A DNA stretch of 64,000 nt from Candidatus Aceula lacicola (GCA_030765785.1 JAVCCC010000050.1:3629-67628), one strand, 5' to 3'; shown: positions 48,858 to 52,647, counted from the first letter of the stretch. Numbers and translations: made by a program. Notes: generated by a model not told the origin, from the letters alone.

Positions 48858-50075
48858 TTAGATCAACTTTTTGTATTCGGACAAAGCCGTACGATCTGTC
48901 ATGTCGGCAATAAAATTACAAATAATTTCTTTTTTTTCTTCCTTGCTATATTTTTCATCTCGATCATAGACGTCATAAGGCAGCTGATGAGGATTATCTT
49001 TGTAAACTTTAAAAAGTTCTCGAATAACTCTCTTAGCTTTGGTTGTCATGCGATCAACACGATAATGATGATACAGCTTCTTTTTAACAAGATCTTGGAG
49101 CTTACTACGCTCCTGATGCATTTGGTCGCTAAATCGAATAATATCCGTCCCTTTTTTTGATGTCCTAAAATCGCCTATTGACTTAAATGCTCTTTTCTCA
49201 AGCTCTGCATCCGAACTTTGCAAAAGATCAACAACCTGAATATTAATTAAATTCTTAATAATCTGATTACGTTCAATAATCTCACTTATGTTCTTTGTTT
49301 TTCCCTGAATTCCACCAAGCACACGCATCCAGAGTTCACTTTCTTCTAAATCTTCCTTGTTAATATATTTCGAAGCAAGACCATCATCAATATCATGGCT
49401 AAGATATGCTAACTCATCAGCTCGATCAACAACTTTTGCTTCTAAGGTCAAGAATTTTGCTGAAAGTTCTTTTTCATCTGACGGAACATCATATGTGGTC
49501 TCGTGAGCTAAGATGCCTGCTAGAGCTTCTCTTGTTAAATTCAGTCCTTCAAAATCAGGATATCGCTTTTCTTTCTTAACAATCTCGTAACTTCTTTTGT
49601 TATGATTAAATCCACTAACCTTATGTCGTCCTATTATACGATTGACAAGCCCATCAATCTTCTTTTCTTCTCCCATAATCTCGTCTAGCGCGTCTTCGCC
49701 AGCGTGCCCAAAAGGCGCATGACCAAGGTCGTGAGCAAGCGCAATCGCTTCAATTAAATCCTCATTAAGCCTTAAGCTACGACCAATGGTTCTTGCAATT
49801 TGTGCAACTTCTATAGTATGGGTTAAGCGTGTTCGGTAATAATCACCCTCAGAAATCGGATAATAATCATCCTCAAAAATAGGAAAAACCTGTGTTTTAT
49901 ATTCCAGGTTTCGGAATGCTCTTAGATGTACAATGCGATCTCGATCACGCTGATAGCAAGTGCGCTTACTATCAAGAGGCTCTTCATGAAAACGCCCACC
50001 GGAATCCTTGCTACACATGGCATAAGGAGCTAAATTCTTTACTTCTAATTGCTCAATTTCTTCTCTTGTCCGCAT
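48858..50075 (-). CDS. dgt: dGTP triphosphohydrolase-like HD protein
   Basis: RTRLTHTIEVAQIAR...HDLGHAPFGH and a C-terminal ...DMTDRTAL; 405 aa. Confidence 0.9.
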   Translation of the reverse strand: MRTREEIEQLEVKNLAPYAMCSKDSGGRFHEEPLDSKRTCYQRDRDRIVHLRAFRNLEYKTQVFPIFEDDYYPISEGDYYRTRLTHTIEVAQIARTIGRSLRLNEDLIEAIALAHDLGHAPFGHAGEDALDEIMGEEKKIDGLVNRIIGRHKVSGFNHNKRSYEIVKKEKRYPDFEGLNLTREALAGILAHETTYDVPSDEKELSAKFLTLEAKVVDRADELAYLSHDIDDGLASKYINKEDLEESELWMRVLGGIQGKTKNISEIIERNQIIKNLINIQVVDLLQSSDAELEKRAFKSIGDFRTSKKGTDIIRFSDQMHQERSKLQDLVKKKLYHHYRVDRMTTKAKRVIRELFKVYKDNPHQLPYDVYDRDEKYSKEEKKEIICNFIADMTDRTALSEYKKLI

Positions 50076-50553
50076 TGACTAATTTCTCGCGTAATGTTTC
50101 CAAAGATTGTGATATCACTTTTGAATCTGTTGTCACTGGCATAAAGTTCACATCGCCCTTCCAGCGCGGCACCACATGAACATGGAGGTGTCCAGGGAAT
50201 CCTGCTCCTGCGATACGCCCAATATTAATGCCAATGTTGTATCCTTGAGGCTTTAAAACCTCTTCTAAAAGATCCTTGACCTCTTCCAATAGATTAAATA
50301 AATCATACTTTTCTTCTTTTTTCAACTTTTTTAAATCGCTAACATGTCGGTTAGGGATAATTAGAGCATGTCCATTATTGTAAGGAAAGATATTCAAAAC
50401 CGCGAAACAATACTCTGTTCTTTTAAAAATATAATTTCTCTTATCCGCCTTACTTGCAAAAATATTACAAAAAACGCATCCTTTTGTTTTCTTGTGTATC
50501 GCCGTTACATATTTAGACCGCCAAGGAGCCCAGAGCCTTTTAACTTTCATCAA
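50053..50553 (-). CDS. HIT family nucleotide hydrolase/transferase
   Basis: Histidine triad HLHVHVVPR with an N-terminal APWR motif. Overlaps the dgt start by 23 nt. Confidence 0.85.
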   Translation of the reverse strand: MMKVKRLWAPWRSKYVTAIHKKTKGCVFCNIFASKADKRNYIFKRTEYCFAVLNIFPYNNGHALIIPNRHVSDLKKLKKEEKYDLFNLLEEVKDLLEEVLKPQGYNIGINIGRIAGAGFPGHLHVHVVPRWKGDVNFMPVTTDSKVISQSLETLREKLVNADKRRN

Positions 50554-51022
50554 TTTTTATAATCCTTCCCTCAATGTGATCCGTGATATCCAAAACACCG
50601 TAAGAACGAAACGGTGCAAAGATTGTATCGGTAGCGCTACCTGGATTAAAAAAAAGAACGTTACCTGTTTTCTCATTCATAGGCTGATGCGAATGCCCAA
50701 AAATAATGGCATCGACTTTTTTCCCCTTAAATTCTTTTTTGACACGATCTAATAGAAATCTTGGCGTGCCTTCACCGTGAAACAATCCTATCGAAAATGA
50801 TTCACAATTAATAATTTGGCTTTTCGGCAGGATATTTCTCAAACTCGCTCCATCCATGTTGCCATAAACAGCTTCAACTTTACAAAATTTCTTTAATCCA
50901 TTAAGATCTTCTATCGAACAGAAATCTCCCACATGAATAATGAGATCGACTGTTTTAAGATCATCTAAAACTTCTTTAGATAATGTGCGAGAATGAGTAT
51001 CGGAAAGGACGCCTATTTTCAT
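50540..51022 (-). CDS. YfcE/MJ0936-family metallophosphoesterase
   Basis: MKIGVLSDTHS...HVGDF...GHSHQP motifs; 160 aa. Overlaps HIT by 14 nt. Confidence 0.88.
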   Translation of the reverse strand: MKIGVLSDTHSRTLSKEVLDDLKTVDLIIHVGDFCSIEDLNGLKKFCKVEAVYGNMDGASLRNILPKSQIINCESFSIGLFHGEGTPRFLLDRVKKEFKGKKVDAIIFGHSHQPMNEKTGNVLFFNPGSATDTIFAPFRSYGVLDITDHIEGRIIKIDES

Positions 51023-52647
51023 TTTACAATATAAGGTTTGTCGTACATGTTTAACAATAAATTTATCTCACCCTCACTCCAAATCCATGTCTTTTCTTGA
51101 AGCGCTTTTAGCCGTGCGCTATTTTCCAAATCTTTAAAAGAAATGATAACGCGTCTACGCGGCTTTTGGCTCAATTTCTTTGATTCGCTTAAGAATGCAC
51201 TCACATCGCCTTCGGACAACGGTTCTTCGTTTAGAACGATAAACCATGCCTCATCTGACGAATAAGCCTTGATCACATCCAGATCTCGCTTAGAAGCACT
51301 TCTCATTTTCAATGGCTTGATTTTATAAAAGCACGGTAAACGATATCGTCGACCCTCAAAATTAAACGATTCGTTATCAAAACATTTTAAAAGATCCACA
51401 ATGCGCAAAGACAATTCTTTTTGAGAAACCGATTGGAAGCTCGAAACAGATTCGCTTAATTCGACAGAAAAATGTTGTCTTTGGCGATCGAGGTCGCATC
51501 CAATAGAATTAAGTCTTTTCTGAAAAATATATTTTATCCAATACTTAAACAACTTATCCTTTAAATAATAAAAGCTTGCGCATTTCTCAACAATTCCAAA
51601 CTCAATTAAAATTGACATTTTTTGCAAAATAAAACTTTTTCGAAGATCAGCATTTGCAGCGATGTCCTCTGTTTTGTGATGATGGTTAGCAAGCGCAATC
51701 AAAAGACTACAAACTTCACGGTTATTCTTACCCGGCGATAACTGGCTAATCATAATTTCAAAATGACGACTCAAAACACCCCATTTATCAAAAATTGTAT
51801 TTTCAATGGCTTTGGATAATAGCGGTAAGAAAACTTCAGACTGATTATGGATTAAAGATAAATTCTTGATTTCACGAACGAGAATACTAAGATAAAATGG
51901 ATGACCGCCTGTAAAATCAATTAAAAAGTTTTTCAGATCTCGGCTCATCTGTATGTCGGAAAGGCAATAGCCAATAAAGCTCTGACTTGTTTCCAGTTCA
52001 AATGGGCGAATGTCGACGATCTCAAAGTGACCAAATAAAAGCGATAATTTTTCAGACAAAATTTTTCGGGCAATGTTTTGCATCGAGCTTGCCATCAGAT
52101 ACAGACATCTTTTCTGCGTCATAATGCGTTTGCCTAATTCTTGAAACACATCTGTAATAGCAAGGTCTTCGAGATTATGAAACTCGTCTAAAATAATCAA
52201 ACAAAACATTTTTGATTCTAGCGAAAAAACTTCTGGCAAAGAAATAAGCTGCCGATAGCTCTCCGCAAAACGTTTCTTATCAATATTAGACTGAATTCGC
52301 TTAATCACCTCAATGGTTTGAGGAATTTCCTTCTTTGTCGTTTCCATCAAAAGACTAAGATCGTCATGAAGAGCAAGTTGTTTTGATTTTGCAAAATTAT
52401 ACAAAATGCTTCCAACAAAATTACAGAAAATATATTTAAAATCTTTTTGATCTAGATCCAGATAAATCGTGATCAACTCTGGATCATCCAAATCAGAGAC
52501 AAACTTATGAAGAATAGAAGTTTTCCCAATATGCTGAGGACCTAAAAGTGCGACGTTTTGACGATATCCATCTTTTAGATCAATAACGCGTTTCTTGAGA
52601 ATCGCTAAAGTATTTTTTCGATCAAAAAAAAGTTTCTCTAAATCCAT
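51019..52647 (-). CDS. AAA+ ATPase (archaeal-type ATPase_2 family) with C-terminal DUF234-like domain
   Basis: Walker A LLGPQHIGKTS and Walker B LIILDEFHNL, with a roughly 150-aa C-terminal extension (...DVIKAYSSDEAWFIVLNEEPL...). 542 aa. Overlaps the MPE gene by 4 nt. Confidence 0.65.
   Translation of the reverse strand: MDLEKLFFDRKNTLAILKKRVIDLKDGYRQNVALLGPQHIGKTSILHKFVSDLDDPELITIYLDLDQKDFKYIFCNFVGSILYNFAKSKQLALHDDLSLLMETTKKEIPQTIEVIKRIQSNIDKKRFAESYRQLISLPEVFSLESKMFCLIILDEFHNLEDLAITDVFQELGKRIMTQKRCLYLMASSMQNIARKILSEKLSLLFGHFEIVDIRPFELETSQSFIGYCLSDIQMSRDLKNFLIDFTGGHPFYLSILVREIKNLSLIHNQSEVFLPLLSKAIENTIFDKWGVLSRHFEIMISQLSPGKNNREVCSLLIALANHHHKTEDIAANADLRKSFILQKMSILIEFGIVEKCASFYYLKDKLFKYWIKYIFQKRLNSIGCDLDRQRQHFSVELSESVSSFQSVSQKELSLRIVDLLKCFDNESFNFEGRRYRLPCFYKIKPLKMRSASKRDLDVIKAYSSDEAWFIVLNEEPLSEGDVSAFLSESKKLSQKPRRRVIISFKDLENSARLKALQEKTWIWSEGEINLLLNMYDKPYIVK

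Follow-up and report, generated by a model that had tools for sequence, protein, structure and literature searches.

What holds together a run of genes that encodes an ATPase and several unrelated nucleotide-cleaving enzymes? Such a run lies on the core chromosome of Candidatus Aceula lacicola, a metagenome-assembled genome of Candidatus Omnitrophota, in the stretch GCA_030765785.1 JAVCCC010000050.1:3629-67628 (hereafter the window; 64,000 nucleotides [nt], numbered from its first letter), whose other genes include dnaE, PPDK, groEL, guaA and uvrB. In the direction of transcription the run comprises an AAA+ ATPase, a YfcE-type metallophosphoesterase (MPE), a HIT protein and an HD-domain deoxynucleoside triphosphate (dNTP) triphosphohydrolase (dgt), and a gene for an HD-GYP protein comes next. 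The initial annotation, made from the sequence alone, described a four-gene operon and offered two readings of it, a coordinated clearance module for nucleotides or second messengers and a dNTP-depletion defence cassette. We consider it likely that the four genes are a co-transcribed, vertically inherited housekeeping stretch within an order-conserved block of ~20 genes in the sampled Omnitrophota.

We compared the window with 94 related loci: 8 from species-representative genomes, 80 from metagenomes (found with a profile of diverse ATPase family members) and 6 from look-ups of four deeply divergent ATPase members and one intermediate. Nineteen proteins of the window were mapped onto these loci by tblastn; ATPase identity among the loci ranged from 80% to 26%. 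The closest relative is 80% identical in amino-acid (aa) sequence, a distance at which synonymous sites would be saturated, and the ratio of nonsynonymous to synonymous substitution rates (dN/dS) was hence set aside. The array accC-asp23-x-pfk-gmhA-rfaE2-ThiD2-M23-ATPase-MPE-HIT-dgt-HD-GYP-SPOR-x-M50-aroB is collinear in essentially every long-enough locus, down to 32% ATPase identity. By gene calls, the array continues upstream through aroQ-pepP-efp-accB, and a convergent pair that includes an ExeA-like ATPase comes next after aroB in the collinear loci. Within this array the order ATPase-MPE-HIT-dgt-HD-GYP is intact in 46 of 53 informative loci (those with at least 4.5 kb downstream). The order of the first four genes is thus conserved and not restricted to one genome, and the scattered, unlinked homologues that the initial annotation had named as evidence against a dedicated system were not what we found in relatives.

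The nucleotide genes are linked to each other no more tightly than the glycolysis gene is to the heptose synthesis genes. The gene for a 203-aa protein adjoins pfk in 40/40 loci, pfk adjoins gmhA in 44/44, rfaE2 adjoins ThiD2 in 56/56 and M50 adjoins aroB in 42/42; the corresponding counts within the run are 74/77 for ATPase to MPE, 68/72 for MPE to HIT, 61/63 for HIT to dgt and 56/57 for dgt to HD-GYP. The most constant neighbour of the ATPase is the M23 peptidase gene (78/78), 15 nt upstream of it in the window, and a tRNA-Gly lies upstream of the ATPase in 61/64 related loci. Because the whole block is frozen, conserved order carries no functional information here.

The divergence of the block proteins is likewise housekeeping-like. 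In the deepest tblastn bin (ATPase identity 32-40%), accC is 72%, pfk 62%, HIT 53%, aroB 52%, dgt 48%, MPE 46%, HD-GYP 40% and the ATPase 34% identical. In its length, single strand, tight packing and order kept over deep divergence, the array recalls the dcw and S10-spc-alpha clusters. The block differs from these in being mixed in function (aromatic amino acid, fatty acid, glycolysis, heptose, thiamine, envelope and nucleotide genes), with no obvious assembly logic. Mixed as it is, this set of ~20 genes is ordered alike across the Omnitrophota down to 26-34% ATPase identity. In the literature on Omnitrophota synteny we found nothing on this block.

Several observations weigh against a housekeeping stretch that owes its order to the block alone. 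All five genes are kept together in the 46 intact loci, and a clustering of four nucleotide phosphohydrolases is also expected of a real functional module. The same is true of the ATPase-MPE junction, which has a median spacing of -4 nt across loci, and of the out-of-frame overlap of HIT and dgt, which is present in 58/65 loci and measures exactly 23 nt in 23 of them. The loci were sampled via the ATPase, so that genomes without it lie outside the sample, and they are phylogenetically non-independent. Finally, frozen synteny does not disprove a functional coupling of the hydrolases.

We read the junctions of the five genes directly. The coding-region overlaps of 4, 14 and 23 nt and the coordinates in the initial annotation are correct. 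ATPase and MPE share a stop/start overlap of 4 nt (ATGA). The MPE/HIT junction is TTGATGAAAGTTAA, an overlap of 14 nt when HIT is started from TTG and of 11 nt when it is started from ATG. The HIT/dgt junction is ATGCGGACAAGAGAAGAAATTGA, an overlap of 23 nt that places the dgt start inside the HIT gene, and dgt and HD-GYP are separated by 4 nt (TAA-tata-ATG). The dgt N-terminus, MRTR(E/Q/K)(E/D)IE, is conserved (65 loci), and because it is conserved together with the out-of-frame overlap, HIT and dgt are probably translationally coupled. The overlaps from ATPase to dgt are not exceptional in themselves, because overlaps are the norm in this genome: among consecutive minus-strand open reading frames (ORFs) of the window, 18/54 junctions overlap and 33/54 are 20 nt or less.

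The four genes do not form an operon of their own. They sit within a longer same-strand array that runs unbroken from ~60890 to 45232, with no gap above 100 nt and no convincing terminator. The largest gap, of 97 nt, holds the tRNA-Gly(CCC) gene, and the downstream genes from HD-GYP through SPOR and a 76-aa ORF to M50 are spaced by 15, 1 and 10 nt before M50 overlaps aroB. The array has the features expected of an operon (one strand, short or negative spacers, no convincing internal terminator). In a scan of 44500-59000 for promoter- and terminator-like motifs, counts were no higher than in shuffled sequence, and no operon boundary could be placed. Judged from gene layout, the array may be one very long transcription unit or a few, and tRNA processing possibly punctuates its transcript. 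Since the genes from ATPase to HD-GYP are co-oriented and tightly packed, they are likely co-transcribed, and the four-gene stretch very probably is. That the junctions stay tight phylum-wide likewise favours genuine co-expression.

Domain scores and readable catalytic motifs bear out the identities first given to all four hydrolases. The MPE matches Metallophos_2 at 124.7 bits and TIGR00040 (yfcE) at 103.8 bits, above the cut-off of 56.25, and its metal-binding motifs are all readable: DTH (DxH), GD, GNMD (GNxD) and GHSH (GHxH). In both respects it resembles the YfcE/MJ0936 metallophosphoesterases, and its nearest PDB entries are 2kkn and MJ0936. The HIT protein (PF01230, 68.8 bits) carries the motif HLHVHVV and belongs, by its sequence, to the Ap4A (diadenosine tetraphosphate)-phosphorylase/ATP-adenylyltransferase-like branch. 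It aligns over its full length with NF052622 (142.9 bits, under the equivalog cut-off of 290) and matches PDB entries 6af2 (1e-32) and 3ano, the Mycobacterium tuberculosis Ap4A phosphorylase Rv2613c (2.4e-31 over residues 4-159). With these it shares, besides the full-length alignment, the N-terminal extension typical of the branch and the HxHxHxx motif. It differs from Rv2613c in falling below the NCBIfam equivalog cut-off, and its activity is a predicted one.

The dgt product matches HD (62.5 bits), HD_assoc (74.1 bits) and TIGR01353 (234.1 bits; cut-off 152.35). It scores 384.6 bits against NF002326 (the PRK01286 equivalog), marginally below the cut-off of 390, and matches PDB entry 2dqb, the Thermus thermophilus dNTPase TT1383, at 2.5e-74 (residues 3-404 against 4-374). 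This full-length similarity, with HD and HD_assoc, identifies it as a predicted housekeeping dNTP triphosphohydrolase of the TT1383/PRK01286 type; it departs from TT1383 in lying just under the NF002326 cut-off. The HD-GYP protein has a clear HD_5 match (133.6 bits), with LHDAG and HHEWYNGMGYP in its translation. The "GAF-HD-GYP" label is secure in its second part; the GAF part scores just under the Pfam cut-offs (GAF_3, 26.8 against 27; GAF_2, 26.4 against 28.6), and larger HD-GYP orthologues carry clear GAF matches. The nearest structure, PmGH, an HD-GYP c-di-GMP phosphodiesterase of Persephonella marina (PDB entry 4mcw; 3e-30 over residues 108-347), is similar in having a GAF-like N-terminus joined to HD-GYP and in length (369 aa, against 359 in the window), and differs in that the GAF call of the window protein is marginal by Pfam.

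These identities invite the reading that the run is a nucleotide and second-messenger homeostasis module, in which the hydrolases would together dispose of dNTPs, alarmones of the Ap4A type, a phosphodiester by-product and cyclic di-GMP (c-di-GMP), with the AAA+/winged helix-turn-helix (wHTH) ATPase as a nucleotide-sensing regulator or scaffold. Ap4A-type dinucleotides have been reviewed as candidate second messengers (PMC7705103). Four mechanistically distinct nucleotide phosphohydrolases stand in a row, their tight or overlapping junctions are conserved phylum-wide (HIT-dgt above all) and the full set is kept in most informative loci. The ATPase winged helix matches transcription-regulator families in some members, the ATPase directly overlaps HD-GYP in one deep-branching locus (L095), and PilZ genes lie nearby, which points to c-di-GMP signalling being present. 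Against such a module, its synteny is no stronger than that of unrelated neighbours, and MPE, HIT and dgt have each been lost or detached in lineages that keep the others, which is unexpected for an obligate multi-part system. To our knowledge, no shared pathway joins the substrates of the four hydrolases, which also counts against it. The coordinated clearance module of the initial annotation thus keeps the part about co-transcription, which is very likely, and draws nothing from synteny; the role of the ATPase as a sensor for the hydrolases is not supported. We regard the module as unlikely.

The losses and detachments are spread over several lineages. L064 and L077 have no HIT gene between MPE and dgt. 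In L031 the block stops after MPE, with lpxB and msbA coming next, and in L037 no block gene was detected beyond MPE. In L091 and L092 the block stops after HIT, and an HD-GYP gene is on the opposite strand. MPE is absent from L093 (GCA_022072175.1). In L095 the M23 gene, MPE, HIT and dgt are all absent, and the ATPase overlaps a 516-aa GAF-HD-GYP gene by 4 nt. That single members have been lost independently argues against an obligate multi-component system.

L093 and L095, which are deep-branching, share two further features. Their HD-GYP orthologue is ~516 aa long, its GAF domain is clear, and an additional gene of ~216 aa comes after it; a second, short HinT-like HIT gene lies a few kb downstream, beside PilZ genes.

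The housekeeping stretch that we favour would work without joint machinery, each enzyme most likely doing the generic job of its family. The Dgt-type enzyme would trim dNTP pools, the Rv2613c-like HIT enzyme would remove dinucleoside polyphosphates such as Ap4A, the YfcE-type enzyme would act as a putative small phosphodiesterase, and the GAF-like HD-GYP protein would degrade c-di-GMP or a related cyclic dinucleotide. The ATPase, judged from its modelled fold, is most likely an ATP-dependent DNA-binding protein. The gene order would then reflect frozen synteny of the whole block, aroQ-pepP-efp-accBC-asp23-x-pfk-gmhA-rfaE-ThiD2-tRNA-Gly-M23-ATPase-MPE-HIT-dgt-HD-GYP-SPOR-x-M50-aroB, and not a dedicated four-enzyme machine.

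The presence of a dGTPase-like gene also raises the question of defence, since defensive dGTPases exist (bioRxiv 10.1101/2021.04.26.441389): in an anti-phage cassette that acts by dNTP depletion, the ATPase would sense infection and unleash the dGTPase and the other hydrolases. The generic PADLOC dGTPase model does match dgt (269.5 bits), so that an automated finder might flag it, the HIT protein weakly matches Thoeris ThsC2, and in the predicted structure the C-terminal fold of the ATPase is like that of nuclease domains in defence effectors. Against NF041026, the curated model for anti-phage dGTPases, dgt however scores 189.3 bits (cut-off 400), in two partial stretches, whereas its best matches are the housekeeping PRK01286 model and Thermus TT1383. 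Among 10 flanking proteins, PADLOC models gave nothing but weak generic P-loop matches of the ExeA-like ATPase. The locus holds a fixed, vertically inherited core-genome position across the sampled phylum, tblastn of the ATPase against plasmids returned no homologue, no mobile-element genes turned up among the annotated parts of the window, and the nuclease-fold domain of the ATPase appears to have no conserved catalytic motif. Tal et al. found that only homologues at least 45% identical to Sp-dGTPase are enriched beside defence genes, and that distant homologues (<45%) are rarely beside them and may be housekeeping (bioRxiv 10.1101/2021.04.26.441389). A 2026 paper on an octameric dGTPase offered no data on clades or gene neighbourhoods that bear on this locus. 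The dgt of the window belongs to the same HD dNTPase superfamily as the anti-phage dGTPases (Sp-dGTPase, NF041026) and matches the same generic PADLOC model; it differs from them in lying far under the NF041026 cut-off, in not standing beside defence genes and in not being sporadically distributed. With a housekeeping-type dgt, no defence genes among the 10 flanking proteins and a fixed core position, we reject the anti-phage cassette as extremely improbable.

The ATPase had been placed among the AAA(DUF234) ATPases, a placement that holds for its architecture but not for its family. Pfam reports AAA_14 above the cut-off and ATPase_2 slightly below (29.3 against 33.2 bits); 35 of 42 diverse family members match ATPase_2 at E<=0.1, the best at 1.4e-11. 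DUF234 (PF03008) matched neither the full protein nor its C-terminal 215 or 103 aa at E<=10, and was outside the 25 most frequently matched families among the 42 members. A phmmer search of PDB sequences gave no match at E<=1, and the structural matches come from fold comparison only. An AlphaFold model built with 46 homologues (predicted local distance difference test [pLDDT] 88, predicted template-modelling [pTM] score 0.84) was compared with the PDB by Foldseek. The top matches were the archaeal ATPase_2 proteins PABY2304 (2qen; template-modelling [TM] score 0.73) and SSO1545 (2fna; TM 0.66), both scores normalised by target length, followed by Orc1/Cdc6 and subunits of ORC (the origin recognition complex). 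The likeness to the two archaeal proteins lies in the AAA+ fold. In the model, residues 1 to ~365 form an Orc1-like AAA+ module with a winged helix, and the predicted layout is an archaeal-type AAA+ domain, the winged helix, a long helix and a PD-(D/E)xK-like C-terminal domain. The fold of this last domain resembles the nuclease domains of Can2, Card1-like proteins and LlaBIII. The winged helix matches transcription-regulator families in some members of the ATPase family.

In a diverse alignment of the family (A2), Walker A is invariant and the DE of Walker B is 83-88% conserved. In the C-terminal domain E479 is the only site that is acidic in every member; 81-86% of members have an acidic residue at 426 and at 508, and the alignment has no conserved Asp at the expected second strand, nor Lys at the third strand, of the PD-(D/E)xK motif. 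The window protein carries N473, where close relatives mostly have K. Because, judged by sequence position, a conserved D...(D/E)xK motif is missing, the nuclease-fold domain is probably non-catalytic, and the protein probably not a working nuclease. DUF234 (PF03008/COG1672) and DUF1703 are nuclease-fold domains joined to AAA+ ATPases, according to surveys of the PD-(D/E)xK superfamily (PMC3424549, PMC1913061). The window ATPase has the same architecture as these fusions and differs in lacking both a PF03008 match and the conserved nuclease motif. The DUF234-type family is, moreover, multi-copy and patchily distributed, whereas the window ATPase is a single-copy syntenic core gene seen in only one bacterial phylum.

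A HMMER search of 1.84 billion cluster representatives gave 234 ATPase clusters at E<=1e-30, nearly all of ~540 aa and aligning end to end, with identity down to 25%. The identical protein is encoded on a JGI contig of 172 kb and on an ENA contig of 56 kb. All named homologues are from Candidatus Omnitrophota; other labels occur only on one unclassified hydrothermal-vent metagenome entry and on some third-party annotation (TPA) bins labelled "uncultured Planctomycetales". Going by these sequence matches, the ATPase is one orthologous family, seen only in the phylum Omnitrophota. In one locus (L010, 8001-9633) the ATPase was matched only partly (8123-8938), which a frameshift, an assembly error or a pseudogene might explain.

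The constancy of the M23 gene beside the ATPase suggests a further reading, that the functional partners of the ATPase are the envelope and division genes (LysM-M23, SPOR, M50) and that the hydrolases are inserted passengers. M23 to ATPase is the most constant adjacency recorded, with a median gap of ~2 nt across loci, and SPOR, M50 and, in most relatives, an SH3 protein continue the same array. Yet the ATPase is predicted to be soluble and to combine an Orc1-like AAA+/wHTH part with a nuclease fold, an architecture that appears DNA-oriented and includes no envelope-related domain; M23 is absent beside the ATPase in L095 and L076, and adjacency is uninformative within a frozen block. This reading is therefore very unlikely. 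A broader proposal would join the two sides. The ATPase would be the founding member of a core family confined to Omnitrophota and to one locus, with an Orc1-like AAA+ domain, a winged helix and a degenerate nuclease-fold domain. As a regulator or chromosome factor that binds DNA in an ATP-dependent way, it would link the turnover of nucleotides, alarmones and c-di-GMP (by MPE, HIT, dgt and HD-GYP) to the envelope and division genes M23 and SPOR within a frozen super-operon found phylum-wide. We hold this to be a distinctly doubtful proposition.

Taking the four genes as a housekeeping stretch removes a plausible-looking false positive for defence discovery: a generic dGTPase match beside an AAA+ ATPase and a HIT gene can be ordinary core metabolism. 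It also means that, where the local gene order of a lineage is frozen, conservation of that order cannot be taken as a sign of functional coupling. Two leads follow from the survey. An ATPase family of known architecture occupies a single chromosomal position in all the Omnitrophota sampled, and the unusually stable mixed-function block of ~20 genes could serve as a synteny marker for the phylum. Should the hydrolases prove to be co-regulated, the block would offer a compact case of dNTP, Ap4A and c-di-GMP pools being controlled together.

Table 1. Features of the array in the window, listed in the direction of transcription (gene calls with Pfam domains are from the Joint Genome Institute [JGI] annotation of the identical contig).
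Feature	Coordinates	Strand	Product length	Basis or remark
aroQ, pepP-like M24, efp, accB, accC, Asp23, 203-aa ORF, pfk, gmhA, rfaE domain II, ThiD2 (upstream genes)	53435..60890	minus		JGI calls and Pfam
tRNA-Gly(CCC)	53347..53418	minus		ARAGORN; Rfam 63.5 bits; between ThiD2 and M23 genes
LysM + M23 peptidase (NlpD-like lipoprotein)	52663..53337	minus		Peptidase_M23 89.4 bits, LysM 39.5 bits
ATPase	52647..51019	minus	542 aa	ORF listing
MPE (YfcE-type phosphoesterase)	51022..50540	minus	160 aa	ORF listing
HIT	50553..50053	minus	166 aa	From TTG; 165 aa from ATG 50550, the start in the JGI gene call
dgt (HD dNTP triphosphohydrolase)	50075..48858	minus	405 aa	ORF listing
HD-GYP	48853..47774	minus	359 aa	ORF listing
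SPOR-domain protein	47758..47174	minus		Pfam SPOR
76-aa ORF	between SPOR and M50 genes	minus	76 aa	
M50 protease	46931..46317	minus		Pfam Peptidase_M50
aroB	46365..45232	minus		DHQ_synthase gene call

The genes on either side of the run (Table 1) are part of the same conserved block: the downstream SPOR, M50 and aroB genes are collinear in related loci, and so, by tblastn, are the upstream genes. In an Rfam scan of the whole window the tRNA was the sole match. The lineage of the window differs from most relatives at two points, for which L094 and L096 served as the comparison. Between ThiD2 and M23 (53338-53434 in the window) most relatives have one more gene, thiE/TMP-TENI or sometimes thiC or pfkB, and between the 76-aa ORF and M50 (46932-46941 in the window) most have an SH3-domain gene; the window lineage is without either.

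In most relatives the block ends at a convergent pair, found here on the plus strand at 43930-45227. One gene of the pair encodes an ExeA-like AAA_22 ATPase of 280 aa, 48-79% identical among the loci in which it was detected; the product of the other, 150 aa long, has weak T2SS-C/CdsD-like matches. Beyond the pair, at ~42866-43837, lie two PilZ genes.

Elsewhere in the window, the gene at 16555-17997 (minus strand) encodes another HD hydrolase, a membrane receptor of the 7TM-7TMR_HD type whose HD domain is intracellular, and with it the region has several HD-type nucleotide phosphohydrolases. The minus-strand gene at 22690-25893 codes for a protein of 1067 aa in which an MFS transporter-like N-terminus is fused to a spermidine-synthase domain and TPR repeats. 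Nearly all genes of the window are on the minus strand, and GC skew is negative along its whole length. Only three plus-strand genes are plausible, and one of them, at 13259-15436, encodes a Hel308-like DEAD-box helicase with archaeal helicase domain 4.

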